Assembly (NCBI GenBank): GCA_000004985.1
Contig: GG738898.1
Length of the DNA: 64,000 bases
Reading direction: 5' to 3' (one strand)
DNA from: Naegleria gruberi
Taxonomy: Eukaryota
This document shows, piece by piece, positions 168 to 64,000 of this stretch. The notes under the pieces were generated by a model that had not been told where the DNA came from, did no database searches, and saw only the letters and a list, made by a program, of their open reading frames with translations. The position numbers and the translations under genes were made by a program. Each line of letters starts with the position of its first letter. Positions within the stretch are counted from its first letter, which is position 1.

Positions 168-1147
168 AAACCTTCATGTGTAAAACCAGTAATTAAAGAA
201 TTATAATAACCATCAAAATCTTCATTACAATAATCTTTAAAAAATTGAAAAGCCTTTTCAATATTACCTTCCTTAATAAAACCTTCAATAATAATATCTT
301 TTGTTAAAGTAGGTGGTTTCATACCATATTCAGTTGACATTTGATTAAATAATTCCATTGCCATACTCATATCATTAATTAAAGCATAACCTCTAATTAA
401 AGTAGTAAATGTAAATTCATCAGGTGGAACTAAAACTTGATCAGATTCATCCATCCAATTAAATAATTCCATTGCTCTTTTCATTACAACTAAATTATGT
501 TCACATGTTGGATTAAATACTTTAATTTCTTTAATTAATCCATTTAATACTACTGTAAATGCTGATGTTCCTATATATGGTGCTGTTTGTCCATGTTCAT
601 TCTTGGCATTTCTTAAAAAATTAATTGCACCTGTTACATCACCTGTATTTATAATTATTTGTAATAATTTTGTAATTTTAGGTTTTAATTTTAATTGTAA
701 AACTATATTTTCACTTGATAATCCCATTTCATTACAATTATCAATACGTTTCTTTAATAATTTTAATAATGTTCTAGCTGTTTCAATATCTCCTACTTCT
801 TTTATAGTTTCAACTAATTTATCTAATAATGTTTCAACAACACGTAATTGTGTTTTACTTCCCTTTTCATTGGCTTTTAGAAAGAATTTAACTTCTCTAT
901 AAACTTCAAATAATGGTGATTGTTGTTTACCATCTTGATATAATTTATTAGAATTAATAATGGATCCTTCTTTTTTCATTCTTCTATAAAATTCTAATGT
1001 ATTCATAATTTCATTACGTTTTTTTAATACTTGTTCATAATTTTCAAATGTTGTTATTGTTGCTTCATTAGTTGTTGTAGTTGTAGTAGAAAAAGTAGAA
1101 GTAGAATCATCATCATCATCATTATCATCATTCATATTATTTGTAGT

Positions 1148-1178
<31 letters not shown>

Positions 1179-1231
1179 GAATTATAAAGGCTTTGAGAGG
1201 AAGGCTTGTTATTATTTCTAAAAGCCTTTAA
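168..1231 (-). CDS. Pentatricopeptide-repeat (PPR) protein, partial. The N-terminus is lost in the gap at 1232-2704, and the C-terminus probably continues past a GT donor near 167 out of the window.
   Basis: Minus-frame translation shows degenerate ~35-aa helical repeats, e.g. 'TLIRGYALINDMSMAMELFNQMSTEYGMKPPTLTKDIIIEGFIKEGNIEKAFQFF'. The track ORF 92..3436 artificially fuses it through the N-run to the PMS1 C-terminal domain. Confidence 0.55.
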
Positions 1232-2704
1232 NNNNNNNNNNNNNNNNNNNNNNNNNNNNNNNNNNNNNNNNNNNNNNNNNNNNNNNNNNNNNNNNNNNNN
1301 NNNNNNNNNNNNNNNNNNNNNNNNNNNNNNNNNNNNNNNNNNNNNNNNNNNNNNNNNNNNNNNNNNNNNNNNNNNNNNNNNNNNNNNNNNNNNNNNNNNN
1401 NNNNNNNNNNNNNNNNNNNNNNNNNNNNNNNNNNNNNNNNNNNNNNNNNNNNNNNNNNNNNNNNNNNNNNNNNNNNNNNNNNNNNNNNNNNNNNNNNNNN
1501 NNNNNNNNNNNNNNNNNNNNNNNNNNNNNNNNNNNNNNNNNNNNNNNNNNNNNNNNNNNNNNNNNNNNNNNNNNNNNNNNNNNNNNNNNNNNNNNNNNNN
1601 NNNNNNNNNNNNNNNNNNNNNNNNNNNNNNNNNNNNNNNNNNNNNNNNNNNNNNNNNNNNNNNNNNNNNNNNNNNNNNNNNNNNNNNNNNNNNNNNNNNN
1701 NNNNNNNNNNNNNNNNNNNNNNNNNNNNNNNNNNNNNNNNNNNNNNNNNNNNNNNNNNNNNNNNNNNNNNNNNNNNNNNNNNNNNNNNNNNNNNNNNNNN
1801 NNNNNNNNNNNNNNNNNNNNNNNNNNNNNNNNNNNNNNNNNNNNNNNNNNNNNNNNNNNNNNNNNNNNNNNNNNNNNNNNNNNNNNNNNNNNNNNNNNNN
1901 NNNNNNNNNNNNNNNNNNNNNNNNNNNNNNNNNNNNNNNNNNNNNNNNNNNNNNNNNNNNNNNNNNNNNNNNNNNNNNNNNNNNNNNNNNNNNNNNNNNN
2001 NNNNNNNNNNNNNNNNNNNNNNNNNNNNNNNNNNNNNNNNNNNNNNNNNNNNNNNNNNNNNNNNNNNNNNNNNNNNNNNNNNNNNNNNNNNNNNNNNNNN
2101 NNNNNNNNNNNNNNNNNNNNNNNNNNNNNNNNNNNNNNNNNNNNNNNNNNNNNNNNNNNNNNNNNNNNNNNNNNNNNNNNNNNNNNNNNNNNNNNNNNNN
2201 NNNNNNNNNNNNNNNNNNNNNNNNNNNNNNNNNNNNNNNNNNNNNNNNNNNNNNNNNNNNNNNNNNNNNNNNNNNNNNNNNNNNNNNNNNNNNNNNNNNN
2301 NNNNNNNNNNNNNNNNNNNNNNNNNNNNNNNNNNNNNNNNNNNNNNNNNNNNNNNNNNNNNNNNNNNNNNNNNNNNNNNNNNNNNNNNNNNNNNNNNNNN
2401 NNNNNNNNNNNNNNNNNNNNNNNNNNNNNNNNNNNNNNNNNNNNNNNNNNNNNNNNNNNNNNNNNNNNNNNNNNNNNNNNNNNNNNNNNNNNNNNNNNNN
2501 NNNNNNNNNNNNNNNNNNNNNNNNNNNNNNNNNNNNNNNNNNNNNNNNNNNNNNNNNNNNNNNNNNNNNNNNNNNNNNNNNNNNNNNNNNNNNNNNNNNN
2601 NNNNNNNNNNNNNNNNNNNNNNNNNNNNNNNNNNNNNNNNNNNNNNNNNNNNNNNNNNNNNNNNNNNNNNNNNNNNNNNNNNNNNNNNNNNNNNNNNNNN
2701 NNNN

Positions 2705-5257: not shown

Positions 5258-5307
5258 NNNNNNNNNNNNNNNNNNNNNNNNNNNNNNNNNNNNNNNNNNN
5301 NNNNNNN

Positions 5308-6300: not shown

Positions 6301-7225
6301 NNNNNNNNNNNNNNNNNNNNNNNNNNNNNNNNNNNNNNNNNNNNNNNNNNNNNNNNNNNNNNNNNNNNNNNNNNNNNNNNNNNNNNNNNNNNNNNNNNNN
6401 NNNNNNNNNNNNNNNNNNNNNNNNNNNNNNNNNNNNNNNNNNNNNNNNNNNNNNNNNNNNNNNNNNNNNNNNNNNNNNNNNNNNNNNNNNNNNNNNNNNN
6501 NNNNNNNNNNNNNNNNNNNNNNNNNNNNNNNNNNNNNNNNNNNNNNNNNNNNNNNNNNNNNNNNNNNNNNNNNNNNNNNNNNNNNNNNNNNNNNNNNNNN
6601 NNNNNNNNNNNNNNNNNNNNNNNNNNNNNNNNNNNNNNNNNNNNNNNNNNNNNNNNNNNNNNNNNNNNNNNNNNNNNNNNNNNNNNNNNNNNNNNNNNNN
6701 NNNNNNNNNNNNNNNNNNNNNNNNNNNNNNNNNNNNNNNNNNNNNNNNNNNNNNNNNNNNNNNNNNNNNNNNNNNNNNNNNNNNNNNNNNNNNNNNNNNN
6801 NNNNNNNNNNNNNNNNNNNNNNNNNNNNNNNNNNNNNNNNNNNNNNNNNNNNNNNNNNNNNNNNNNNNNNNNNNNNNNNNNNNNNNNNNNNNNNNNNNNN
6901 NNNNNNNNNNNNNNNNNNNNNNNNNNNNNNNNNNNNNNNNNNNNNNNNNNNNNNNNNNNNNNNNNNNNNNNNNNNNNNNNNNNNNNNNNNNNNNNNNNNN
7001 NNNNNNNNNNNNNNNNNNNNNNNNNNNNNNNNNNNNNNNNNNNNNNNNNNNNNNNNNNNNNNNNNNNNNNNNNNNNNNNNNNNNNNNNNNNNNNNNNNNN
7101 NNNNNNNNNNNNNNNNNNNNNNNNNNNNNNNNNNNNNNNNNNNNNNNNNNNNNNNNNNNNNNNNNNNNNNNNNNNNNNNNNNNNNNNNNNNNNNNNNNNN
7201 NNNNNNNNNNNNNNNNNNNNNNNNN

Positions 7226-9638: not shown

Positions 9639-10293
9639 TTTTTTTGTAGTTTTTAATATTAAAAAATAATACCAAAATAAAGATCAGCAAGGCTACACTT
9701 TTAAAAAGCAATAAATAAACTCGCTTGTTAGCTATCTTTATTCTTCAATAACCTGAACAAACAAGATTCGTCCAAGAACTCTTGAATTCACTGTTCATAC
9801 AGTCAAAGACTGTAGCGGGATTGTCGCCATATTCCTGGCAGGCTTCCCGTCTAAATCATTAAGTNNNNNNNNNNNNNNNNNNNNNNNNNNNNNNNNNNNN
9901 NNNNNNNNNNNNNNCTCCACACTTTTAGTTTCAAATTGACTGATTTGCTGAGACCTCAATTGAGTGATGAGGAATTACTGTCCATTGATTTTGAAAATAA
10001 CTCACCATATTCGTATGTGGTTAATGTAACTTCACATGAGGGCTCACACCACACTTTAAACTGATTTCCACATTCAAACCAATCTTTCTAAGGCATCCCT
10101 CAACATGTTGACGCATTCAGCCGCTAATCAACTTGCCAAACAAGGAATATTGATTAAATGTATTGATGGTGCTTACAGAATTTTACATCCAATCCTCACC
10201 AATTCCACCAGTTATGGTAAATTATTCAAAGACTATAAAGTTGTTGAGTGGTAGCTTTGCTTGTACTGGCAAGAAACTTAGCAAATTATTAGT

Positions 10294-11969: not shown

Positions 11970-12362
11970 TGAATCAAGTGAAATCTTAATTGTATCTCTA
12001 ATAATGGAATTAGCTGTTTACCTCCATGANNNNNNNNNNNNNNNNNNNNNNNNNNNNNNNNNNNNNNNNNNNNNNNNNNGATGATCAATTATTCCATCCT
12101 TTTATTGGTTAAAAATATTAGTCTAATATCATTTCTATTGATTCAATAGATTAACAAGTATTCCAGTGTAATAAGTATTCACACTTGCTCTCCCAATTTC
12201 TCCTTATTAAATCCACCAATTAATTCAAAACTTTGAAATACGTGTTTTCATTACAATATCAGTTCATCCTCAGTCAACTTGAAGTAACTTTTTCTATTAA
12301 TAAAAAATTCTCTTTTAAAAAAAAATAATCATTATTCCGATCTTAAAATTCTCATCATCAAA

Positions 12363-26501: not shown

Positions 26502-27077
26502 TGATTCAAAGGAAAAATCATTGGGANNNNNNNNNNNNNNNNNNNNNNNNNNNNNNNNNNNNNNNNNNNNNNNNNNNNNNNNNNNNNNNNNNNNNNNNNN
26601 NNNNNNNNNNNNNNNNNNNNNNNNNNNNNNNNNNNNNNNNNNNNNNNNNNNNNNNNNNNNNNNNNNNNNNNNNNNNNNNNNNNNNNNNNNNNNNNNNNNN
26701 NNNNNNNNNNNNNNNNNNNNNNNNNNNNNNNNNNNNNNNNNNNNNNNNNNNNNNNNNNNNNNNNNNNNNNNNNNNNNNNNNNNNNNNNNNNNNNNNNNNN
26801 NNNNNNNNNNNNNNNNNNNNNNNNNNNNNNNNNNNNNNNNNNNNNNNNNNNNNNNNNNNNNNNNNNNNNNNNNNNNNNNNNNNNNNNNNNNNNNNNNNNN
26901 NNNNNNNNNNNNNNNNNNNNNNNNNNNNNNNNNNNNNNNNNNNNNNNNNNNNNNNNNNNNNNNNNNNNNNNNNNNNNNNNNNNNNNNNNNNNNNNNNNNN
27001 NNNNNNNNNNNNNNNNNNNNNNNNNNNNNNNNNNNNNNNNNNNNNNNNNNNNNNNNNNNNNNNNNNNNNNNNNNNNA

Positions 27078-28499: not shown

Positions 28500-29448
28500 T
28501 TATTGCCTCTTATATTTAATGATATATTCAGGATAACATTGATATCTATCATAAACAATTAATTCTCTATATGCACTATTTGATGCATTTGAGTTTCCAA
28601 TTACACTATCAAAGACTCTTCTGTTAGTACCGTTAATTTCTGGAGGTCTTCTTTCATTTGTCATTCTTTTAGGTGTGTAATAGATTTGTCTTCCCAATAA
28701 AACTCTGCATAAGAATAGAGAATATTCATTATTTCGATCTGGAGTACAATATTGATCACTTTTAGAACAATATTCTGCAAAATAAACTCCAGCTCCAAAT
28801 AAACCTCCCAAACTTGCAACTCTTTCATCAAATCCATGCTCTGAAATGCTTGAAATAAATTCTGGTTTTGTTCCATGCCATAAATATTTTTCATTCATTC
28901 CACCATTCAATCCAACTGTTTTCATCCACTCAAAGGATTTACTTGTTTTTGCTAATTGTTCTGTTTGAACTTGGATTGAGTTCAGGGGATCTTGATAAGA
29001 TGTCAAATGATTCATTCTTGATTTATATGAAGTGAAAAGTGATGCATTTTCAATTCTTGAAACACTTGAAACAACCATTTTGGAATAGTTCATTCTCACT
29101 TGTTGATCTCTTCCACTTCCAAGAGTTGTTGAATTACAAGAAATATCAATTACACCTTGAATAGTATTCTTCAAATATTTTGTAACATCCACAATGTAAT
29201 ATCTTTTAGAATAGGATGTAAATGTATTTCTCTTCCAATAACTTGGCAAGACAATATTCAATTGTTTGGATTTAGATTCTTCCAAATCCATTTCCATTGT
29301 TTGTAATTTCTTTTCCTTAATTTTCAATTTGCTGATTTGATTGGAAATTTCTTCTCTTTTTTTGACACTTTGATTGGTGAATTCTTTTGTTTTCTGTTCA
29401 AGATTCTTAATTTTTTCTTGAAGATTGAGTTTATCTTGATTAAAGATN
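28500..29448 (-). CDS. Poly(ADP-ribose) polymerase catalytic-domain protein, C-terminal part. It continues 5' through the gap at 29449-30718, and the likely N-terminal 'MSLVSSEDLFYSL...' lies at 30859..30719.
   Basis: H-Y-E PARP signature: 'LWHGTKPEFISSISEHGF', 'GAGVYFAEYCSKSDQYC', 'LFLCRVLLGR', 'YRELIVYD'. The upstream part is coiled-coil 'NQDKLNLQEKIKNLEQK'. Confidence 0.82.
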
Positions 29449-31419
29449 NNNNNNNNNNNNNNNNNNNNNNNNNNNNNNNNNNNNNNNNNNNNNNNNNNNN
29501 NNNNNNNNNNNNNNNNNNNNNNNNNNNNNNNNNNNNNNNNNNNNNNNNNNNNNNNNNNNNNNNNNNNNNNNNNNNNNNNNNNNNNNNNNNNNNNNNNNNN
29601 NNNNNNNNNNNNNNNNNNNNNNNNNNNNNNNNNNNNNNNNNNNNNNNNNNNNNNNNNNNNNNNNNNNNNNNNNNNNNNNNNNNNNNNNNNNNNNNNNNNN
29701 NNNNNNNNNNNNNNNNNNNNNNNNNNNNNNNNNNNNNNNNNNNNNNNNNNNNNNNNNNNNNNNNNNNNNNNNNNNNNNNNNNNNNNNNNNNNNNNNNNNN
29801 NNNNNNNNNNNNNNNNNNNNNNNNNNNNNNNNNNNNNNNNNNNNNNNNNNNNNNNNNNNNNNNNNNNNNNNNNNNNNNNNNNNNNNNNNNNNNNNNNNNN
29901 NNNNNNNNNNNNNNNNNNNNNNNNNNNNNNNNNNNNNNNNNNNNNNNNNNNNNNNNNNNNNNNNNNNNNNNNNNNNNNNNNNNNNNNNNNNNNNNNNNNN
30001 NNNNNNNNNNNNNNNNNNNNNNNNNNNNNNNNNNNNNNNNNNNNNNNNNNNNNNNNNNNNNNNNNNNNNNNNNNNNNNNNNNNNNNNNNNNNNNNNNNNN
30101 NNNNNNNNNNNNNNNNNNNNNNNNNNNNNNNNNNNNNNNNNNNNNNNNNNNNNNNNNNNNNNNNNNNNNNNNNNNNNNNNNNNNNNNNNNNNNNNNNNNN
30201 NNNNNNNNNNNNNNNNNNNNNNNNNNNNNNNNNNNNNNNNNNNNNNNNNNNNNNNNNNNNNNNNNNNNNNNNNNNNNNNNNNNNNNNNNNNNNNNNNNNN
30301 NNNNNNNNNNNNNNNNNNNNNNNNNNNNNNNNNNNNNNNNNNNNNNNNNNNNNNNNNNNNNNNNNNNNNNNNNNNNNNNNNNNNNNNNNNNNNNNNNNNN
30401 NNNNNNNNNNNNNNNNNNNNNNNNNNNNNNNNNNNNNNNNNNNNNNNNNNNNNNNNNNNNNNNNNNNNNNNNNNNNNNNNNNNNNNNNNNNNNNNNNNNN
30501 NNNNNNNNNNNNNNNNNNNNNNNNNNNNNNNNNNNNNNNNNNNNNNNNNNNNNNNNNNNNNNNNNNNNNNNNNNNNNNNNNNNNNNNNNNNNNNNNNNNN
30601 NNNNNNNNNNNNNNNNNNNNNNNNNNNNNNNNNNNNNNNNNNNNNNNNNNNNNNNNNNNNNNNNNNNNNNNNNNNNNNNNNNNNNNNNNNNNNNNNNNNN
30701 NNNNNNNNNNNNNNNNNNCAATTGTGAAGTATCCTCATGTGTAATATTCAATCCTTCAATAACTACAATATATTGATGACTGTAAAATGAATAGAAATCT
30801 CTTGGCCTTCGTTTATAACTAAGGGAATAAAACAAATCTTCACTCGAAACCAGTGACAAACGATGTGCATTGTGCCTTCTTTTGAAATTAAGGGAAAAGC
30901 CACTAACTATGGCACCAATTTGTTCTTCCTTTCCACTACCTTCATCAAATCTCTAAATACGCATAGAGACCTTCCTCTCAATGTTGTACACCTCGATATT
31001 ATATCCACGATGATGATCTTTACTATTGATAGTTGTCATGTTTTTTTAAGATTGTGTTTATTTTTAAAACATTTGTCGACCTTAATATATCTTAATACAT
31101 TTGTGAAACATAGAAAATTGTTTGCAAAATCACAAAAATAATTGCATTCTAAATTTGTTTTTTGTTCTTGAATCAATTAAGAGAAATGATCAGTTTCTGT
31201 CTTTTGAAAGGTTATGTTGTCTTGAGGATAATAGAAATGATTATCAACTGATACATCACTGTGTTAAATACAACAATACCTCAAGTCACCAATTTTCGAA
31301 AACAACACCTTATTCATCTTTCTAAATAAGTATACTTCCACATTAATCACTGTGATTATCCGACTCCTCCTAACCAACTCATGAGTTGAAGATCAACCAT
31401 TAACCACAAAGCTTGAAAA

Positions 31420-32510
31420 ATGCGTCAATTACGTGTATCAATATCTCAACCTCAACAAGTTGTTGTGCATCGACCTTCTTATCAAACTCTTCCTCCTAAA
31501 CAATCAGTCATCAATAAGAAGAGAGATCGAAATGTTTTATTGATGGAATATTATTCATCAGCCTATATTCGACCTAGTAAATATTTGCTATTAAGCAGAG
31601 AGGATGTTGAAGAAACTGGTGATGAAGACAATATTTCTTCTCATCATCAGGAAGAAACTAATTTGAATGAAAGTCTTCTCGTTTACACTAATATTGAACA
31701 AGAATCAGCTTTAAATAGAAGAGGTCTGTTGCATGTTGGTGAAGATTGCCTTTCGATTATTGCCAAGTACATGCGAATAGATGAAATGTACACATGTATA
31801 CAAACATGCAAAGCTTGGGGAAGAATGTTACTTCCCACCTTTATGTTATTATCAGAGGAAACTTTAGAATATGAAGAACACTTGCTGGACTTACTCACCT
31901 ATGGTTTGAAAGTGGACAATAATCCATTGGATTTTGCTTCAGAAGGAGTGTTTTCTGAGCATGCTACATGGAAACCACATTTATGTTATCTTGAACAACA
32001 AGAAGTTGCACCATTCGAAGGAAATTTTGAAGAGGAAGAGGTCGTAGAGCATAAAGATTTACAAATTTGTAGGATTAATCTTCCCTTTGGTAGTCCTCTA
32101 TGTAAGGGAACAATAACAGAACAATTCGAATTGATACAAGATGAAGTAAATGTAGATAGCTATCGGGAGGTGGTGAATGAACATCTTGGTATTCCAATAG
32201 AAGAACAATGAAGTTATGAATTTACTCCTTTCGTATTCTATGATGAGATTAAGAGGGAGAAGGAAATGATGCTTCCCTATGTTAAGGAAATTCAACAATC
32301 ACTGATTGCTCATTATGAAGATCATTATAATGAGATGACCAATGAACAGAGATCTTCTCCCTCAATGACATTTTATGGATTAAGACTGGGTATTATGCAT
32401 CTCTTAAAGAGAGGAGGTGTAATGTTCTTTGAACCCAATGTAGTTGAAGATGCTCTCTATCAATTAAAAGCAATCATTTATTTGGTAATTAAGGAAGCTT
32501 ATGAAAGTNN
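31420..32510 (+). CDS. Hypothetical F-box-like protein (31420..32211, possibly continuing in 32266..32510 before the gap).
   Basis: 'LLHVGEDCLSIIAKYMRIDEMYTCIQTCKAWGRMLLP' fits the F-box consensus; the 3' structure is unresolved. Confidence 0.5.
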
Positions 32511-32813
32511 NNNNNNNNNNNNNNNNNNNNNNNNNNNNNNNNNNNNNNNNNNNNNNNNNNNNNNNNNNNNNNNNNNNNNNNNNNNNNNNNNNNNNNNNNN
32601 NNNNNNNNNNNNNNNNNNNNNNNNNNNNNNNNNNNNNNNNNNNNNNNNNNNNNNNNNNNNNNNNNNNNNNNNNNNNNNNNNNNNNNNNNNNNNNNNNNNN
32701 NNNNNNNNNNNNNNNNNNNNNNNNNNNNNNNNNNNNNNNNNNNNNNNNNNNNNNNNNNNNNNNNNNNNNNNNNNNNNNNNNNNNNNNNNNNNNNNNNNNN
32801 NNNNNNNNNNNNN

Positions 32814-34167: not shown

Positions 34168-34561
34168 ATGCGTTTTAACAAATTTGGTATTTAATTAAAT
34201 TGAATTGAACATTACACCTGTCTGAAATTGCTTGTGAAAGTTCTGAATATTCTTATATCTAGAATTGTATTCTCAATTTTTCAGTATTCGATACCTTATT
34301 TAAATTAGATTCTTCCTCACTAAAAACTTTCATATTTCCTCTTTAATATCTTTCAAAGAATCCGAAAGATATCCAAACATCCCTTAACAAGTAAGATTTG
34401 TTGGGCGACGAATTGTATGTAAAGGTGTTGGTTGACCAATAGAAACATCTGTTCCATCCTTGTAGTGATGAAGATTGATTGTCAGCAATTTTGTGGAATG
34501 ATATGTTTTTCNNNNNNNNNNNNNNNNNNNNNNNNNNNNNNNNNNNNNNNNNNNNNNNNNN

Positions 34562-35033: not shown

Positions 35034-36955
35034 ATGTCAGTAAAAGGATTCTCACCATCATTATCATCGATCACTAACACATTGATGATCATTTTGATGA
35101 TGATTAATTTATTATCAATGGTTCATTCATCATTGTGTGCATCATCATCATCATGGACACAAAAACATGGTGATTTCTACATGTCCAATTCCATTCCTGA
35201 TTTTCCACTTTCCCATTCATCATGGATTAGTATGAATTCTCCGATGCTTACCAAGATGAATTTGAAACTTGATTCTACATCATTGATATTTGCAAATGCA
35301 CCATTGAGTGGTAAATTATTGATGGTTCTTGATGATGATAATCAACAATTGGTGATCGCAAGTATTAATTGTACTAGCGGAGTATTTAATATTGAAAGAA
35401 ATTTGACAAGTGTTTATCCTGGAACGAAGAGAGTTNNNNNNNNNNNNNNNNNNNNNNNNNNNNNNNNNNNNNNNNNNNNNNNNNNNNNNNNNNNNNNNNN
35501 NNNNNNNNNNNNNNNNNNNNNNNNNNNNNNNNNNNNNNNNNNNNNNNNNNNNNNNNNNNNNNNNNNNNNNNNNNNNNNNNNNNNNNNNNNNNNNNNNNNN
35601 NNNNNNNNNNNNNNNNNNNNNNNNNNNNNNNNNNNNNNNNNNNNNNNNNNNNNNNNNNNNNNNNNNNNNNNNNNNNNNNNNNNNNNNNNNNNNNNNNNNN
35701 NNNNNNNNNNNNNNNNNNNNNNNNNNNNNNNNNNNNNNNNNNNNNNNNNNNNNNNNNNNNNNNNNNNNNNNNNNNNNNNNNNNNNNNNNNNNNNNNNNNN
35801 NNNNNNNNNNNNNNNNNNNNNNNNNNNNNNNNNNNNNNNNNNNNNNNNNNNNNNNNNNNNNNNNNNNNNNNNNNNNNNNNNNNNNNNNNNNNNNNNNNNN
35901 NNNNNNNNNNNNNNNNNNNNNNNNNNNNNNNNNNNNNNNNNNNNNNNNNNNNNNNNNNNNNNNNNNNNNNNNNNNNNNNNNNNNNNNNNNNNNNNNNNNN
36001 NNNNNNNNNNNNNNNNNNNNNNNNNNNNNNNNNNNNNNNNNNNNNNNNNNNNNNNNNNNNNNNNNNNNNNNNNNNNNNNNNNNNNNNNNNNNNNNNNNNN
36101 NNNNNNNNNNNNNNNNNNNNNNNNNNNNNNNNNNNNNNNNNNNNNNNNNNNNNNNNNNNNNNNNNNNNNNNNNNNNNNNNNNNNNNNNNNNNNNNNNNNN
36201 NNNNNNNNNNNNNNNNNNNNNNNNNNNNNNNNNNNNNNNNNNNNNNNNNNNNNNNNNNNNNNNNNNNNNNNNNNNNNNNNNNNNNNNNNNNNNNNNNNNN
36301 NNNNNNNNNNNNNNNNNNNNNNNNNNNNNNNNNNNNNNNNNNNNNNNNNNNNNNNNNNNNNNNNNNNNNNNNNNNNNNNNNNNNNNNNNNNNNNNNNNNN
36401 NNNNNNNNNNNNNNNNNNNNACTTTCCAATGATTGTAAGGTGGCTATTATTGATTTGGAAATGGAGACCATTATTGTGGATGGAAAGAGACAAGCCAATG
36501 TTAAAATTGATCGATCCCTAACGGAACAATCTGCAATTGTTACAGTAAGTTTATTTATTTATGCAATACTTAATGTTATGATGAAATTAAAGTATTACGG
36601 AGCTAAAGTTATTAAAATGTGTGATAAAACATTATCAAACACAGTCAATATCACAGATTTGATAAGAAATGAAAATTTAGGACATTTATCACTTGGCAAT
36701 TTTGAGCATTTTGTTTACAATGTTTTGGATGAAAAGGTTTACAGTGGAAAAAAAACTTTAACTGAGACATTTATTTGTAAAATTGAAAGTAATGGTAAAA
36801 TTGTTGGCAAAATTCAAAGACCCAAGTCAAATTTGATAGAAATTGAATTTCCATCAACTCCAAACTATAGACACAAAGCACTAGTGTTGGCACTTGCCTT
36901 ATTTTGTTTTGCAACATCAGGTGGTGGTGGTGTCGTCTTCCCAATGATCATTTAA
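35034..36955 (+). CDS. Hypothetical membrane/secreted protein interrupted by the gap at 35436-36420. The 3' part 36440..36955 ends in a hydrophobic tail. There is a candidate in-frame 48-nt intron at 36546..36593.
   Basis: N-terminal signal-anchor 'LMIILMMINLLSMVHSSLCA' and C-terminal 'ALVLALALFCFATSGGGGVVFPMII'. Confidence 0.45.
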
Positions 36956-39311: not shown

Positions 39312-41264
39312 ATGTCATCTGCTGAAGTATTTGATGGAGCCATTGGTATTGATTTGGGAACAACTTATTCATGTGTTGGTGTCTATATGGGAGATAATGT
39401 AGAAATCATTCCGAATGATCAAGGTAATAGAACAACACCTTCCTATGTTGCATTCACTGATGAAGAACGTTTAATTGGTGATGCTGCCAAGAATCAAGTT
39501 GCAATGAATCCACACAATACAGTATTTGATGCTAAACGTTTAATTGGTAGAAAGTTTTCCGATTCAACAGTTCAAGATGATATGAAACATTGGCCATTCA
39601 AGGTCATTACAAAGAGTGATGAGAAACCATACATTCAAGTTGAATACAAAGGAGAATCACATGTTTTCACACCAGAACAAATCTCATCCATGGTCTTGAC
39701 TAAAATGAAGGATATTTCAGAACAATATTTGGGTAAACAAGTCAAGAAGGCAGTCATTACAGTTCCTGCCTATTTCAACGACTCACAAAGACAAGCAACC
39801 AAGGATGCTGGTGCAATTGCTGGTTTGGAAGTTTTGAGAATTATCAATGAACCAACAGCTGCTGCCATTGCTTATGGTTTAAACAAGAAGGGTGAAAGAA
39901 ATGTTTTGATTTTCGATTTGGGTGGTGGTACTTTTGATGTTTCAATTTTGAATATTGAGGATGGTGTTTTTGAAGTGAAAGCCACTGCTGGTGATACTCA
40001 CTTGGGAGGAGAAGATTTTGATAACTTGATGGTTCAATTCTGCTGTCAAGAATTTAAGAGAAAGTACAAGAAGGATATTCAAGAAAATCCAAGAGCATTA
40101 AGAAGATTGAGAACTGCCTGTGAAAGAGCCAAGAGAAATTTATCATCAGCTGCCAATGCTTCAATTAATGTTGATTCAATTATGGACGGAATTGATTTGG
40201 ATATTTCAATGACTCGTGCTAAATTTGAACAATTGAATATGGACTTGTTTAAGAAGTGTTTCGAACCAGTCAAGAAGGTTTTACAAGATTCAGGATTGGA
40301 TAAGGCACAAATTGATGATGTTGTTCTTGTTGGTGGTTCAACTCGTATTCCAAAAGTTCAAGAAATGCTCAGAGAATTCTTCAATGGAAAAGAATTGTGC
40401 AGATCAATTAATCCAGATGAAGCTGTAGCTTATGGTGCTGCAGTTCAAGGCGGTGTTTTAACTGGTAAGGAAACCAAAGTCTTATTAATCGATGTTACTC
40501 CACTTTCATTGGGTATAGAAACAGCTGGTGGTGTCATGACCAAATTGATTGAAAGAAATTCAACCATTCCATGTAAGAAATCTGAAATCTTCTCAACCTA
40601 TGCTGATAATCAAACAGCAGTCACTATTCAAGTCTTTGAAGGAGAAAGAACCTTGACAAAGGATAATCACTTGTTGGGAAGATTTAACTTGGAAGGTATT
40701 CCACCAGCACCAAGAGGTGTTCCAAAGATTGAAGTCACATTTGAAATTGATTCTAATGGTATTATGAAAGTTTCTGCCAAGGATACTTCATCTGGTAAGA
40801 CACAAAACATTACCATCAAGAATGAACAAGGACGTTTGAGTAAGGAAGAAATTGAAGAAATGGTCAAGAAGGCCAAGGAAATGGAACAATTTGATAAGGA
40901 ATTGAAAGAAAAGATTGATGCCAAGAATCAATTAGAGGCCTACGCCTATCAAATGAAATCCACTGCTGATGATCCAAACTTGTCTGGTAAATTATCAGAT
41001 GCTGATAAGAATACCATCAAGAAGACATGTGAGGAAGTTATTAATTGGTTAGATAATAATTCTACCTATTCAAAGGATGATATTGAAAAGAGAAGAAAAG
41101 AATTGGAAGGTAAATGTGCACCAATTATTAGCAAGTTGTATCAACAAGGAGCTGGTCAACCAGAATTTACACCAAATGGTGCAAACTTTACCTCAGATAA
41201 TACTTCCAGTAATTCAAGCAACACAACATCAAAGCCAAAGTTTGAAGATGTTGATGTCGATTAA
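39312..41264 (+). CDS. HSP70: Cytosolic heat-shock protein 70 (HSPA/Ssa-type), 650 aa, intronless.
   Basis: '[13 protein letters not shown]', '[10 protein letters not shown]' and '[14 protein letters not shown]' with full-length collinearity. The C-terminus is 'EDVDVD'. Codon usage is biased to ggt/aag/cca/aga. Confidence 0.97.
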
Positions 41265-41286: not shown

Positions 41287-41344
41287 ATTATGCAATAATT
41301 CACCAATTTGACACTCTACCAAAATGGGTATACTTTTTGTGATT
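41287..41344. repeat. Second copy of the 3' end of the ARF-like gene (identical to 44137..44183), abutting the gap at 41345.
   Basis: 'tcaccaatttgacactctaccaaaatgggtatactttttgtgatt' occurs at both sites. At 44140 it encodes '...KKYTHFGRVSNW*' of the BTB-ARF gene. Confidence 0.8.
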
Positions 41345-42043
41345 NNNNNNNNNNNNNNNNNNNNNNNNNNNNNNNNNNNNNNNNNNNNNNNNNNNNNNNN
41401 NNNNNNNNNNNNNNNNNNNNNNNNNNNNNNNNNNNNNNNNNNNNNNNNNNNNNNNNNNNNNNNNNNNNNNNNNNNNNNNNNNNNNNNNNNNNNNNNNNNN
41501 NNNNNNNNNNNNNNNNNNNNNNNNNNNNNNNNNNNNNNNNNNNNNNNNNNNNNNNNNNNNNNNNNNNNNNNNNNNNNNNNNNNNNNNNNNNNNNNNNNNN
41601 NNNNNNNNNNNNNNNNNNNNNNNNNNNNNNNNNNNNNNNNNNNNNNNNNNNNNNNNNNNNNNNNNNNNNNNNNNNNNNNNNNNNNNNNNNNNNNNNNNNN
41701 NNNNNNNNNNNNNNNNNNNNNNNNNNNNNNNNNNNNNNNNNNNNNNNNNNNNNNNNNNNNNNNNNNNNNNNNNNNNNNNNNNNNNNNNNNNNNNNNNNNN
41801 NNNNNNNNNNNNNNNNNNNNNNNNNNNNNNNNNNNNNNNNNNNNNNNNNNNNNNNNNNNNNNNNNNNNNNNNNNNNNNNNNNNNNNNNNNNNNNNNNNNN
41901 NNNNNNNNNNNNNNNNNNNNNNNNNNNNNNNNNNNNNNNNNNNNNNNNNNNNNNNNNNNNNNNNNNNNACATTTATCGTGTTCTGATTTCTAGAAAAAAC
42001 GAATGATATTGATTTACTGAAAGATTAATATTATTATCCAATA

Positions 42044-43296
42044 TTGTGATTTCGGAAAACCCTTTTCCTTTTTTTTTTGAATTTTTTCAAGGTTTGTTTG
42101 AATTGCTTCGGATTGGTTTGAATTGGATTGAATTGCATCAGATTTGAAAAAAATTTGGCTGCCCGAATTAACTGATAGAGTGTATGTGAATGGAAAAGGT
42201 TTGGCAGACGAAGAGATTCAATTAATTAAATATAAATATGACAATTATCTGCTAATAATATACCTCCACACAAAATTGCTCGTCTTATTCGAGTGGAAAC
42301 CTTGTTTTCTCTTCCGACGATTAGAAAATATATGGAAAACCAAGAAAAATCAAAACCAGGTCGTCCAAGGTATTCTGGAAAATCTACACAATTGAATATG
42401 TTGGCCTTTATTAAAACTTGTTTTGAAATTATGCCCACTCTTTATCTGCAAGAGTTGCAACAATCTATTAAGGAAATATTTGGAAATGAGATATCATTAT
42501 CTCAATTATCGGATGTCAAAACCAAGATTTTGAATATCACTAACAAGAAAGTGGAATTATTAAGTAATTATCGGAAAAAACCTCATATTCAACAACATAG
42601 AAAACTTTACAGAGAATTGGTTCTTGGTTTCGAAATTGATGATTTGTTTTTCATTGACGAGTCCACTGTTACATACACCGATCTAGCAAGAAGGAGAGGT
42701 CACTCATTAAAAGGAACACCTGCAAGGAACTCATCTCATCATGTTTCGAATAAGAGATTTTCAATTATTGCTTGCATCAATAGATTGGTTGGAGTAGTTT
42801 ATTGTGAAGTCATTGATACAACCGAAAAAGGAGTGGATCAAATTATCTTTTCAAACTTCATGGATACTTTGAAACATTTAATTCCAAAAGACAAAGTGTG
42901 TGTTATGGACAATAGTTCAGTTCATAATAAGGAAACTTTGGTTGATTCCATGAAGGAAGCTGGAATACATGTTCTATTTCAAAGTAGATATTCACCAGAT
43001 TACACTCTAATTGAATTTTGTTTCTCGTGGTTGAAAAGTGAACTGAAAAGAGAAGAATATATAACGTACCCATTGGCTTTCTTGGTGAAACAAACCTTTG
43101 ATAGTATGCCAGTGGAAATTGTTCGAAAATATGTTGGACACGCCCAACAGAATTGGAAATCCAATAGATTGTAAGTTAAAATAAAGTTTGTTTTATTTGA
43201 TTGAATTGGTTTGAATTGGTTTGTATTGGATTTTGTTGGAAAAAAAATTGCAAAAAAATTCAAAAAAAAAAGGAAAAGGGTTTTCCGAAATCACAA
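42044..43296. mobile_element. Tc1/mariner-superfamily (DD34E) DNA transposon of 1253 bp with a TA target-site duplication (42042-43 and 43297-98). It has ~44-bp terminal inverted repeats plus subterminal 'GGTTTGAATTGG' direct repeats. The transposase gene is frameshifted.
   Basis: Left end 'TTGTGATTTCGGAAAACCCTTTTCC(T)nGAATTTTTT' equals the reverse complement of the right end '...GGAAAAGGGTTTTCCGAAATCACAA'. The internal ORF encodes an HTH 'KPGRPR' and the DDE core 'FFIDESTV', 'VCVMDNSSVHNK' and 'YSPDYTLIE', with 34 residues between the second D and the E. Confidence 0.85.
42329..43174 (+). CDS. Tc1-like transposase; probably a pseudogene.
   Basis: The N-terminal HTH segment 'MKKIWLPELTDRVYVNGKGLADEEIQLIKYKY' (42144..) is out of frame with the main ORF near 42240-42265, and there is no GT..AG to rescue it. 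Confidence 0.7.
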   Translation, partial: YMENQEKSKPGRPRYSGKSTQLNMLAFIKTCFEIMPTLYLQELQQSIKEIFGNEISLSQLSDVKTKILNITNKKVELLSNYRKKPHIQQHRKLYRELVLGFEIDDLFFIDESTVTYTDLARRRGHSLKGTPARNSSHHVSNKRFSIIACINRLVGVVYCEVIDTTEKGVDQIIFSNFMDTLKHLIPKDKVCVMDNSSVHNKETLVDSMKEAGIHVLFQSRYSPDYTLIEFCFSWLKSELKREEYITYPLAFLVKQTFDSMPVEIVRKYVGHAQQNWKSNRL

Positions 43297-43459
43297 TAGC
43301 CTTCATAATTTTAATATCAAAATTCAATCCGAGAAGAATAATTTTAATATTACTGACTCTTCTAATTGGGAAATATCAGGAAATACTTTTAATGTTGGCG
43401 CTTATACTACTACTGCATTCAATTTATATTACTTATTAGTAAATAATCAAGAATTGATG

Positions 43460-43801
43460 AATGAAATATTACCATTTAATTTAACAAGTATTGAATTACA
43501 TAACAATTTTCCATCCTATTTATTAAAACAAATAACATTACATCTTTATTCAATGACAAAGTCATTTTCAAAGGAGGATAAGAATTTAAATATTAGTTTA
43601 TTAAAAGAGAGTTGTTTCAATGGAATGATATCAAATATTACTCAATTTATTGAAATGTTGCAAGAAAGTCAATTTGGAAGTGATTTGGAGTTTATTGTAA
43701 AATTTGTTGAGGAACAGAATAAGACATTACAACAACTTGTGTTCTCTGAAAAGGATTATTATGAATTCAATGCTATGGAGAATAATACTATTAAGAATTA
43801 A
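43460..43801 (+). CDS. Hypothetical host gene immediately 3' of the transposon. The track ORF 43211..43801 begins inside the right inverted repeat and is over-extended.
   Basis: Open frame 'MNEILPFNLTSIELHNNFPSYLLKQ...'. The transposon junction lies just upstream. Confidence 0.35.
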   Translation, partial: NEILPFNLTSIELHNNFPSYLLKQITLHLYSMTKSFSKEDKNLNISLLKESCFNGMISNITQFIEMLQESQFGSDLEFIVKFVEEQNKTLQQLVFSEKDYYEFNAMENNTIKN

Positions 43802-44139
43802 GAACAATTTATTGTTTAGGTATAGTATTGAAACTATCTCCCTTCACATATGTATGGATCCACCAAAATTTCCAGAGTTGTTTTTAAAAATTGAAGAAGA
43901 GATTTTACATTATTTTCCCTTATCATTTCCTCCCACTAGGGCTATGGCTCCTCTCAATATCATTCAAGTTTTCTGTAAATGATCATTATAGACAGTGTGC
44001 GAAGGAGCAGTCACACCATTAGAGACAACTCTAAGAAGAATGCATTGAGTGGCGAGAAAGATAAAACACAAACCGAGGATTAGTCTCATTTTTTTAGATA
44101 ATTATCAAATTATTGGCATTTACAAAGATGTTGCACAAA

Positions 44140-46108
44140 TCACCAATTTGACACTCTACCAAAATGGGTATACTTTTTGTGATTGATAAGGAGTTTAGGA
44201 AAACCCACAGCTTTCTCAACTGTCTGAATTGCCCATTCCAAACCATCAGATAGACCTAGACCAGTAATTGCACAACACGATTGAACATACCATTTTTGCC
44301 TAAATGTATGTAATTTCAGCAGTGAAACCAATTCAACACGACTCATAGATGTAGATATATCTTGTTTGTTAGCAAACACTAGAATAGGACAATTTTTGAG
44401 CTCATCATCTTTGAGTATTCTGTTTAGGTCATCAGTTGCTTCCTGAAGTCTCTGTCTATCATTCGAATCCAGCACGAACAGTATGCAGTCAGTATTGCTC
44501 AAGTAATGTTTCCAAACCTTTTGTGGACTTCGGTTCTTTTCATTCCCGCCAATATCCCACTAGAATTTTAAAAGTAAATTTCAAATATTTTCCAAAAACC
44601 TCAACTTACAATGCAAATTTCAGCAGTGCCACGTTCCAAGGTTTCAACATTGAAGCCAATGGTGGGTGTCTAAACGAAACTAATTAATGAATAGATTAAA
44701 TTTCACTTACAGTAACTCCAGGTTCTCCACTTTTAAATTGGTTTAGAATTGTGGTCTTACCAGATGAATCAAGGCCAAGTAATAGGAATCTAAGCTTTGT
44801 ATTAATATAATTAACCTTTTCAGGAATTTTTTGAATGAGATATTTCTTCCAAAGCTCATCAGGTATGACACGTTCTTTCCTAAACATGTAAATGTGTAAC
44901 AGATCCTGTATCTCTTCAATCAAGCTCTCAAATTGTGGCATTGACTTTCTAATTCCAATAAATATGAGACAGAATGAGTAGAGGATTTCGTAATCACACA
45001 AACTCCAATCATATTTCCTCAATAATCCATATGCATCTTTGAATCTATTTTCAATATCTTGAAGCATCCACATTACTATATATGCCATTTTGTTTCCTTC
45101 CACTTTAGAAAAATGAGGAGAATCTATCAAACCTTCAAATAATTCCAATGGAAGTGATGAAACAATCTTTAACACAGGTACATATAATAGTGCTAATAGT
45201 AATTGAGTTAACTTTTTTGAAATCATGATATTATCAAGGAATGGATAATACTTAATAAGTAATTTTGGATTTTCCATGTATTTCTTTTCATCCTCATCAT
45301 TTGCATATTCCAATTTCTCTCCACGATATACTGTATCAGAAATAACACATGATGAATTATAACCCAACATGTAGCAAACCTTAGGTATGATAATATCCTT
45401 GCAATCAGCTGAAAATTCCAAACATCTGAGTCCAATAGTGAGGGCATTGAATTGATTTACAACTCGTGAAATAGCTCTGATTAAACTTTCAATTTGATAT
45501 TCGTCAGCAATTTTCAATAATTCCAATAAATCTTTCCATCCAATAATTCTTGCATCATTTTCATTGAATAATCGTTTAGAAAGTCCTAACTTTCCTACGT
45601 GAATAAATTCAATCACCATTTCAAAATAATCACACCACGATTTTTCACAATTTTGTAAAGTCATTTCGTTTGATTTCGACTCGGCCATTTCAATATTTAA
45701 CATTGCTTCAAAAACCTTGCTTTCCAACATGATTAATTCTCTAGAAACCAATAATTTCTTTCTAATTTCAGGTATGTGAATTGTAAAATAAATAGTTTCT
45801 TTCTTAGTTTCTAATAGATTAAACTTTTTAATTAGAAAACTATTCTCTGAATCATCATGACATTGCTCAACTTTAAACAAATCATGATAAATTTTCGGAG
45901 AGTTGTTGTTAGCTGATGTCAATTGATCCTCTTCATCTCTCATCAAGTAGTAATACATTGAATTTTGGACCTTTCGAATAGCAACTTCATTGTGTTGGTC
46001 ACTGAAAAAGCCATCTTCCAATCCACTTCCTTCTTTACAGTACCAATGTGACCACGAATCCAATAGAAATTCATCATCATTCATTTTTTCAATTATGAAA
46101 TTGATCAT
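44140..46108 (-). CDS. BTB/POZ-domain N-terminal region (~440 aa) fused to an ARF/ARL-family GTPase. Exons (minus strand) are 46108..44711, 44669..44610 and 44559..44140; introns are 44710..44670 and 44609..44560, both GTAAGT..TAG.
   Basis: BTB-like 'IYFTIHIPEIRKKLLVSRELIMLESKVFEAMLN'. The ARF motifs are G1 'LLGLDSSGKTTIL', 'T|PTIGFNVETLERGTAEICI|WDIGGNEKNRSPQKVW', 'LVFANKQD' and 'CAITGLGLSDGLEWA'. Switch II is DIGGN rather than DxGGQ. Confidence 0.8.
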
Positions 46109-63248: not shown

Positions 63249-64000
63249 TNNNNNNNNNNNNNNNNNNNNNNNNNNNNNNNNNNNNNNNNNNNNNNNNNNN
63301 NNNNNNNNNNNNNNNNNNNNNNNNNNNNNNNNNNNNNNNNNNNNNNNNNNNNNNNNNNNNNNNNNNNNNNNNNNNNNNNNNNNNNNNNNNNNNNNNNNNN
63401 NNNNNNNNNNNNNNNNNNNNNNNNNNNNNNNNNNNNNNNNNNNNNNNNNNNNNNNNNNNNNNNNNNNNNNNNNNNNNNNNNNNNNNNNNNNNNNNNNNNN
63501 NNNNNNNNNNNNNNNNNNNNNNNNNNNNNNNNNNNNNNNNNNNNNNNNNNNNNNNNNNNNNNNNNNNNNNNNNNNNNNNNNNNNNNNNNNNNNNNNNNNN
63601 NNNNNNNNNNNNNNNNNNNNNNNNNNNNNNNNNNNNNNNNNNNNNNNNNNNNNNNNNNNNNNNNNNNNNNNNNNNNNNNNNNNNNNNNNNNNNNNNNNNN
63701 NNNNNNNNNNNNNNNNNNNNNNNNNNNNNNNNNNNNNNNNNNNNNNNNNNNNNNNNNNNNNNNNNNNNNNNNNNNNNNNNNNNNNNNNNNNNNNNNNNNN
63801 NNNNNNNNNNNNNNNNNNNNNNNNNNNNNNNNNNNNNNNNNNNNNNNNNNNNNNNNNNNNNNNNNNNNNNNNNNNNNNNNNNNNNNNNNNNNNNNNNNNN
63901 NNNNNNNNNNNNNNNNNNNNNNNNNNNNNNNNNNNNNNNNNNNNNNNNNNNNNNNNNNNNNNNNNNNNNNNNNNNNNNNNNNNNNNNNNNNNNNNNNNNN

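Follow-up and report, generated by a model that had tools for sequence, protein, structure and literature searches.

A DD34E Tc1/mariner transposon copy with a frameshifted transposase gene, and a repeated BTB-Arf gene end beside an assembly gap, in Naegleria gruberi

Cut-and-paste transposition of Tc1/mariner elements duplicates the dinucleotide TA only and gives no 45-nt flanking duplications. A literature search for Tc1/mariner elements of Naegleria found no description. The element described here, lying within a 64-kb stretch of N. gruberi DNA (the window), is an ordinary cut-and-paste Tc1/mariner transposon, and it shared with Tc1, Tc3, and Sleeping Beauty the TA duplication, the terminal inverted repeats (TIRs), a single transposase of about 340 codons, and an element size of about 1.3 kb. 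The features that define the superfamily were found together, namely a DDE/D RNase H-like domain, TA flanks, and TIRs bounding an element of 1-2.5 kb, and the assignment as a DD34E Tc1/mariner element with TA duplication was fully supported by the combined sequence, profile, and modelled-fold evidence. The element was composed of the following features:

42042-42043: left TA target-site duplication
42044-43296, plus strand: Tc1/mariner-superfamily (IS630/Tc1-like, DD34E) element, 1253 bp
42044-42087, plus strand: left TIR, 44 bp
42098-42136, plus strand: left subterminal repeats with 10-bp period (TTGAATTGG/C)
42144-43174, plus strand: transposase pseudogene, read in the frame of 42144 to about 42251 and then in the frame of 42293, with the stop codon at 43172-43174
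42250-42252, plus strand: putative 1-nt deletion (frameshift) within the first helix-turn-helix (HTH) region, at about codon 36 of 343
42356-42370, plus strand: PGRPR (GRPR-like) linker between the halves of the paired-like DNA-binding domain, from the translation
43201-43229, plus strand: right subterminal repeats with 10-bp period, direct relative to the left set
43253-43296, minus strand: right TIR, 44 bp, 100% complementary to the left
43297-43298: right TA target-site duplication

The sequence-only reading had described a 1253-bp element with perfect 44-bp TIRs and flanking TA/TA, and all of this stood: the element spanned 42044-43296, its TIRs were 100% complementary, and TA was present directly outside both of them. 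TA plus the 44-bp TIR made up a 46-nt, 100% complementary inverted repeat, which occurred at just these two sites within the window (chance expectation, about 2e-16 pairs); the 64-kb window contained one copy of the transposon. The subterminal repeats were also present as claimed (GGTTTGAATTGG at 42115 and 43208, plus a copy with one mismatch at 43218), but their orientation between the two ends had to be corrected, since the repeats at both ends all lay on the plus strand and were therefore direct, not inverted. The reading of a recent insertion was upheld: because the TIRs are perfect and the TA/TA flanks clean, the insertion is young.

The window transposase ORF matched Pfam DDE_3 (E 2.8e-19) and the IS630 model NF033545 (E 5e-25, 88.6 bits; model cut-off, 100 bits). 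Its closest relative P0002, the 341-aa transposase of Logan contig SRR26782601_196417 (locus L001), was 65% identical and colinear, and it matched NF033545 with E 1e-25, the scores of both ORFs being 88-90 bits and under the 100-bit cut-off. The catalytic residues were D122, D206, and E241 in the window ORF, with spacings of 83 and 34, and their equivalents in P0002 (D170, D254, and E289) were invariant across 32 family members; the DD34E Tc1-like nature proposed beforehand was thus borne out, with a DDE_3 domain and with E separated from the second D by 34 residues. The family profile matched Mos1 (1.7e-11, the best PDB match), SETMAR, and SB100X (5e-9), and its positions 5-119 matched the paired domains of Pax5, Pax6, and Prd (E 1e-6 to 1e-5). 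The AlphaFold model of P0002 reached pLDDT 90.6 when built from a 32-sequence alignment (a 2-sequence alignment had given an unusable pLDDT of 48.8). This model matched the fold of full-length Mos1 (E 4.6e-12) and the catalytic domains of Mos1, Metnase, and Sleeping Beauty (TM about 0.65-0.75), and it contained six helices at residues 20-127, the DNA-binding region. The Pfam search for HTH domains gave weak HTH_32 and HTH_33 matches only, and the Pfam Tc3/Tc5 HTH models did not match the transposase. A bipartite paired-like HTH was found at the family level, its first half being broken by the frameshift in the present copy.

This frameshift had been placed between the HTH and the main ORF; its existence was confirmed, while its position was found to be within the first HTH. 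When one base was restored at 42250-42252, a stop-free frame of 343 codons resulted, and it aligned without gaps and end to end to the 341-aa P0002. All ATGs in the 5' part of the transposase were out of frame, leaving no in-frame start, and the annotated protein EFC39566.1 (280 aa; the one member of its 90% protein cluster) began at an internal Met of the transposase. The uninterrupted ORF with start codon of an autonomous element was therefore lacking. With one nucleotide deleted in the first HTH and no initiator ATG, this copy would be unable to make its own transposase, and the transposase gene at 42144-43174 appears dead; the frameshift is situated only some 280 bp from a contig start and so could be a sequencing error. 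An intact DD34E transposase would bind the 44-bp TIRs via its N-terminal paired-like bipartite HTH domain, cut out the element, and insert it again at a TA, this dinucleotide being duplicated in the process. Since its own transposase is lacking, the copy would be non-autonomous and decaying, and we infer that it would be mobile, through mobilisation in trans, only given an intact copy at another site.

The surroundings of the element were organized as follows:

39312-41264, plus strand: Hsp70 gene, 650 aa, NAEGRDRAFT_44741 / EFC39565.1 (Pfam HSP70, E 2e-261; exact protein-collection match)
41300-41344: repeat copy 1, reaching directly to the gap edge
41345-41968: assembly gap, 624 N
43299-43801, plus strand: host ORF, no Pfam match, first in-frame ATG at 43457
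44140-44184: repeat copy 2, consisting of the stop codon at 44140-44142 (minus strand) and the last 14 codons of BTB-Arf
44140-46108, minus strand: BTB-Arf fusion gene (Pfam BTB and Arf; tblastn)
46108-44711, 44669-44610, and 44559-44140, minus strand: BTB-Arf exons
44710-44670 and 44609-44560, minus strand: BTB-Arf GT..AG introns, with splice sites read from the sequence

The minus-strand gene, named BTB-ARF in the sequence-only reading, was indeed a fusion of BTB and Arf. BTB-Arf relatives were present in other samples, among them P0123, which ended before the Arf C-terminal tail; no second Arf paralogue was found within the 64-kb window. With the empty site reconstructed, the frame of the host ORF was open leftwards across it as far as a TGA at about 42013, and the transposon may therefore interrupt a host gene. 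A scan for bacterial promoters and terminators gave nothing above shuffles, the models being bacterial and the host eukaryotic.

The two repeat copies were exactly identical over 45 nt (41300-41344 and 44140-44184; blastn E 4e-21), with 47/48 matches from 41297; the first copy had been reported as 47 bp from 41287, and its start was corrected to 41297 (47/48) or 41300 (exact 45 nt). The repeat had also been described as last codons plus 3' UTR: the coding part held for nearly all of it, namely the final 14 codons of the Arf exon together with the BTB-Arf stop, while the 3' UTR accounted for merely 2-3 nt. Copy 1 was in frame and protein-identical to copy 2 (14/14 residues plus the stop), it lay 35 nt downstream of the Hsp70 stop codon, and the two copies did bracket the element and one host ORF. 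Global and local alignments found no similarity upstream of the copies, even degraded. The gap at 41345-41968 was the only one of the 14 gaps in the window with a flank that recurred elsewhere in the window. The contig index had no record of either the Hsp70 or the transposase protein under exact look-up, and homologue searches with the Hsp70 C-terminus and spliced BTB-Arf found no N. gruberi or near-identical proteins; these searches missed the Hsp70 protein known to be in the collection searched, so a missing match is no evidence of absence.

As to the cause of the repeat, for which the sequence-only reading had offered a transposon-associated segmental duplication or an assembly artefact at the gap, we infer that it is most likely, with somewhat better than even confidence, a contig-end or alternative-haplotype artefact, because the copies are 100% identical, copy 1 ends at the gap edge, the repeat starts at the stop codon, and nothing similar lies beyond. 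The contig ending at the gap would carry at its tip the Hsp70 3' flank running directly into the BTB-Arf 3' end; this tip would possibly derive from the alternative haplotype in a heterozygous diploid, without the segment of about 2.8 kb (transposon plus one ORF), or alternatively from a chimeric or misjoined read, and the gene end would stand twice in the scaffold, yet once per chromosome copy. Naegleria has been described as mainly heterozygous diploid, and only one assembly of N. gruberi, NEG-M, is listed (PMC9928731). Tentatively, and on balance doubtfully, NEG-M would be heterozygous for a structural polymorphism: (i) haplotype 1 with 35 nt between Hsp70 and BTB-Arf, which face each other tail to tail, and (ii) haplotype 2 with an insertion of about 2.8 kb including the host ORF, itself hit by a very young Tc1-like element of a sparsely sampled, presumably heterolobosean DD34E lineage, with direct subterminal repeats and with a two-gene element (L001) as its only close relative. 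Two points stand against the artefact: the scaffold joins both contigs with an estimated gap of 624 bp, so that Hsp70 and the transposon-bearing contig are in fact linked by clones, and this fits a real repeat-insert-repeat structure equally; and it is normal for an assembler to end a contig once it has gone a few dozen bases into a genuine repeat.

The same points favour a real insertion or duplication, in which about 2.8 kb was inserted at the BTB-Arf gene end and a long target stretch was duplicated, by staggered breaks filled during repair, target-primed reverse transcription, or dispersed segmental duplication; the transposon would have inserted later, and Hsp70 would have as its neighbour a dead fragment from the 3' side of the Arf exon, continuing into the gap. 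The order U-R-[gap]-Y-R-Z (R being the repeat) is the exact expectation for an insertion with long target duplication, the two contigs are joined in the scaffold by a gap of finite estimated size, and contig breaks just inside a repeat are common in assemblies. This origin is nevertheless rather unlikely: all 45 visible bases are identical, the boundary falls exactly on the stop codon (as it would if two alleles shared conserved coding sequence), and the visible right junction (44100-44139) showed neither polyA nor a terminal repeat nor any other sign of insertion, the left one being hidden in the gap. The in-frame copy 1 with its 14/14 identical residues and stop, together with the BTB-Arf relatives known from other samples, would also suit a gap that is underestimated and hides a near-identical BTB-Arf paralogue or a large part of it, the 45 nt being its visible tip; with a gap estimate of 624 bp against a gene of about 2 kb, no other paralogue in the 64-kb window, and identity breaking off abruptly at the stop codon and no similarity left in the UTR, such a paralogue seems quite improbable. 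The suggestion that the duplication was associated with the transposon, made for example by aberrant transposition or by repair after excision, draws on physical proximity only, in that the copies bracket the element, and it is hardly credible. A precise TA/TA duplication of its own flanks the element, whose ends are separated from the copies by about 0.7 kb (gap included) and 0.84 kb, and an unrelated ORF shares the bracketed segment; since Tc1/mariner elements duplicate TA only and the copies are distant, the 45-nt repeat is not a product of transposition, and a causal link was unsupported.

Until it has been checked, the repeated Arf gene end beside the gap is accordingly best regarded as a probable problem of assembly or haplotypes and not as biology, and EFC39566.1 ("predicted protein") should be labelled as a truncated frame of a Tc1/mariner transposase pseudogene. 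The ploidy and sexuality of N. gruberi are still debated. If the two-haplotype reading is true, the locus would provide a PCR-testable marker of structural heterozygosity and a datable transposon insertion, and it would point to haplotype divergence and to recently active DNA transposons in Naegleria.

The comparison with known systems was also applied to the closest relatives. Locus L001 had AT-rich ends with short ATTG-type tandem repeats, a likeness to the Naegleria element, but it differed in that its transposase gene was intact and in that a second, divergently oriented ORF of 414 aa lay between inverted contig ends; the host ORF beside the Naegleria element showed no similarity to this second ORF. 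Terminal repeats comparable to those of the Naegleria element were not found at the next relative, P0166 (locus L002). A scan of JGI metagenomes with the 18-nt tip of the terminal repeat gave 26 single matches, which were taken as chance: they ended after 18-19 nt and were without transposase.

Bacterial IS630 and the Naegleria element had in common the best curated model (NF033545), the DDE_3 domain, the TA target, and a similar size; in contrast to IS630, the host was eukaryotic, the model score was below the cut-off, and the closest relatives were metagenome and Logan proteins. The paired-like N-terminal domain and the GRPR-like linker were shared with Tc1-like DD34E elements, and the stretch from the second D to E aligned gaplessly to SB100X of Sleeping Beauty, while identity to the solved Tc1/mariner proteins was only about 14-16%. 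The terminal repeat of Tc1 typically starts with CAGT, whereas that of the Naegleria element began with TTGTG; the 10-bp subterminal repeats were direct between the ends, in contrast to Sleeping Beauty and Tc3 with their IR/DR layout. Mos1 mariner was the best full-length structural match, including the DNA-binding domain, and the best PDB profile match; the mariner motifs WVPHEL and YSPDLAP were not conserved in the Naegleria element, which had YSPDYTLIE, and its third catalytic residue was E, not the D of Mos1 (DD34D).

An inverted repeat of 46 nt with 100% complementarity was identified at 42042-42087 and 43253-43298 (about 2e-16 such pairs expected from base composition). Its outermost two bases were TA on both sides, and the bases beyond them were unpaired; thus the best reading was a 44-bp terminal inverted repeat, a TA/TA target-site duplication, and an element of 1253 bp, just as the sequence-only reading had described this Tc1-like element. 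The 25-nt tip of the terminal repeat, at up to three mismatches, was found only at the two element ends in the window (0/100 shuffles). Subterminal repeats, also claimed by that reading, were present at both ends, and all copies lay on the plus strand; they were thus direct, not mirror-symmetric, relative to the element ends, a detail that had been missing.

Features of the element
42044-43296: element, 1253 bp, with 44-bp terminal inverted repeats plus TA/TA target-site duplication
42098-42136 and 43201-43229, all plus strand: subterminal repeats (TTGAATTGG/C), 10-bp period, with recurrence of GGTTTGAATTGG and of its 9-nt core

The long transposase open reading frame (ORF; 42293-43174) was 100% identical to the annotated protein P0001 (EFC39566.1 / XP_002672310.1, NAEGRDRAFT_72532), deposited as 'predicted protein [Naegleria gruberi]' from a 310,422-bp scaffold. 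This ORF matched Pfam DDE_3 (E 2.8e-19) and, at E 5e-25, the IS630 model of NCBIfam, where its score of 88.6 bits fell slightly short of the cut-off of 100 bits; it displayed the candidate catalytic residues D122 (FFIDES), D206 (VMDNSS), and E241 (YSPDYTLIE), whose spacings of 83 and 34 corresponded to DD34E. When 1.84 billion representative proteins were scanned in full with HMMER, 2984 relatives were obtained at E<=1e-3 and only 20 at E<=1e-30; the ten looked up among the closest were metagenome or Logan proteins of ~320-350 aa. Invariant residues in an alignment of 32 relatives included reference D170, D254, and E289, the last two again 34 apart. In the profile of these 32 sequences, the C-terminal two-thirds matched Mos1 (1.7e-11), SETMAR, and Sleeping Beauty SB100X (5e-9), and N-terminal positions 5-119 matched the paired domains of Pax5, Pax6, and Prd (1e-6 to 1e-5). 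The closest transposase relative, P0002, was 65% identical to and colinear with the window ORF; its AlphaFold model, built on the 32-sequence alignment, was confident (pLDDT 90.6), had full-length Mos1 transpososome chains as its best PDB matches (E 4.6e-12), and gave target-normalised TM values of ~0.65-0.75 against the catalytic domains of Mos1, Metnase, and SB. Sequence, profile, and fold matches thus agreed on every testable Tc1/mariner and DD34E (Tc1-like) feature, and the element belongs, in mechanism and membership, to the Tc1-like DD34E branch of the IS630/Tc1/mariner superfamily. No description of such elements in Naegleria was found in the literature searched.

P0002 (341 aa; encoded on L001, a Logan contig from run SRR26782601) had an intact N-terminus, and its counterpart in the window was split between the frame of 42144 (…NGKGLADEEIQLIKYKYDNYL) and the long-ORF frame (…NNIPPHKIARL…). 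The window copy was 1 nt short in its DNA alignment with the L001 relative, and one base added anywhere in 42250-42252 yielded 343 stop-free codons with a gapless end-to-end alignment with P0002; the frameshift was therefore a single-base deletion in the first half of the HTH (~codon 36). The frameshift noticed in the sequence-only reading thus held, but not its position between the DNA-binding and catalytic parts. The codon opposite the P0002 Met was AAA in the window copy, every ATG in the 5' part of the transposase gene (42184, 42190, and 42238) was out of frame, and the annotated 280-aa protein started at an internal Met without the first HTH half. Intact terminal repeats (88/88 bases) together with two lesions in ~1 kb fit a young yet already non-autonomous copy. 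The contig began only ~280 bp away from the deletion, which might thus also be a sequencing error.

The window contained one copy of the element, the 90% protein cluster of EFC39566.1 had a single member, and a scan of JGI metagenomes with the 18-nt tip of the terminal repeat gave chance matches only. A word-indexed homologue search with the C-terminal 199 residues of the Hsp70 ORF as the query did not return the identical N. gruberi protein present in its collection, so matches missing there (e.g. further N. gruberi transposase copies) do not mean absence.

The contig L001 (1-2678) carried the intact P0002 gene at 1555-2580 and ended in a perfect 30-nt inverted repeat, which resembles a terminal repeat that the assembler collapsed at k-1. 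It also harbored a second ORF (414 aa, 172-1416, minus strand) that was divergent from the transposase gene and had no Pfam match, and ATTG-type short tandem repeats were located near its ends; judged from this gene content, L001 may be a two-gene Tc1-like element.

The ORF directly to the right of the element (43299-43801) had no Pfam match. After in silico removal of the element and one TA, its frame stayed open 10 codons further left, and its first in-frame ATG followed 55 codons after the insertion site. An open stretch of ~65 codons at 6.7% stop triplets had a chance probability of ~0.01, and thus the element may interrupt an exon of a host gene, the upstream part of which would then lie in the gap; part of this stretch was open in a second frame as well, and the interruption was therefore rated only a lead.

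The window was AT-rich (G+C 30.7%, N excluded) and contained 14 N runs, four of which were 50-N placeholders and two of which were single N; where long 'ORFs' spanned N runs, they were artefacts of translating N. Together with the exact protein matches, these features identified the window as draft scaffold sequence of N. gruberi NEG-M.

Genes, repeat, and N runs around the element
39312-41264: Hsp70 ORF, 650 aa, exact match to EFC39565.1
41300-41344 = 44140-44184: exact repeat, 45 nt (47/48 when counted from 41297 and 44137)
44140-44184, minus strand: repeat copy 2, comprising the TGA stop (44142-44140) and last 14 codons (…NHKKYTHFGRVSNW) of the BTB-Arf third exon
44140-46108, minus strand: BTB plus Arf fusion gene (Pfam BTB, Arf), three exons
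44710-44670 (41 nt) and 44609-44560 (50 nt), minus strand: BTB-Arf introns, GT..AG, very short
N runs: 1232-2704, 5258-5307, 6301-7225, 9865-9914, 12030-12079, 26527-27076, 27078
N runs, continued: 29448-30718, 32509-32813, 33656, 34512-34561, 35436-36420, 41345-41968, 63250-64000

The BTB-Arf product had an N-terminal BTB/POZ region and a C-terminal Arf-family GTPase, a combination also seen in ENA metagenome proteins (P0126; best match P0123, 51% identical); the repeated 14 codons lay inside the C-terminal tail (~25 residues) of the Arf domain. The repeated gene end reported in the sequence-only reading was real as a sequence (blastn E-value 4e-21; ~7e-16 such pairs expected by chance), with copy 1 starting 10 nt later than written and with an exact run of 45 nt. 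The repeat started exactly at the stop codon and ended exactly at the last base ahead of the 624-N gap at 41345-41968, and neither global nor local alignment gave similarity further upstream of it. Only this gap, 1 of the 14 in the window, had a flank (20- or 30-mer) present a second time, and the recurrence was therefore not a systematic assembler feature.

A duplication linked to the transposon, as suggested from sequence alone, was rejected as the origin of this repeat. Tc1/mariner transposition duplicates TA alone; the element had its own precise TA duplication, it was ~0.7 kb (gap included) away from copy 1 and 0.84 kb away from copy 2, and an unrelated ORF also lay within the bracketed segment, and thus the repeat was not made by the transposon.

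The repeat is probably a contig-end or haplotype artefact, and its perfect identity and its boundary exactly at the stop codon fit this reading. The left contig tip would come from reads joining the Hsp70 3' flank directly to the Arf 3' end, and such reads might derive from a chimeric clone or, in a heterozygous diploid, from a second allele that lacked the ~2.8-kb segment; the boundary suggests conserved coding sequence beside divergent intergenic DNA. Naegleria has been described as mainly heterozygous diploid, and NEG-M was the sole N. gruberi assembly in the list of the 2023 pangenome paper (PMC9928731). A real U-R-insert-R-Z structure is rather unlikely; it would have arisen by dispersed duplication or when an insertion duplicated a long target. 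The scaffold link across a gap of finite estimated size and the tendency of assemblers to break off just inside repeats fit this structure equally well. There is only a slight chance of a paralogue hidden in a gap of underestimated size; the 64-kb window contained no other Arf paralogue.

The main value of these results lies in an annotation correction and in the flag on a probable assembly problem. The element is unusual only in the scarcity of its close relatives, which were very few in public data, in its distance from characterised members, and in its direct subterminal repeats: its transposase was only 14-16% identical to solved Tc1/mariner structures, bacterial IS630 was the closest among curated models, and its subterminal repeats were direct rather than inverted, in contrast to Sleeping Beauty-type elements with their IR/DR arrangement of binding sites.
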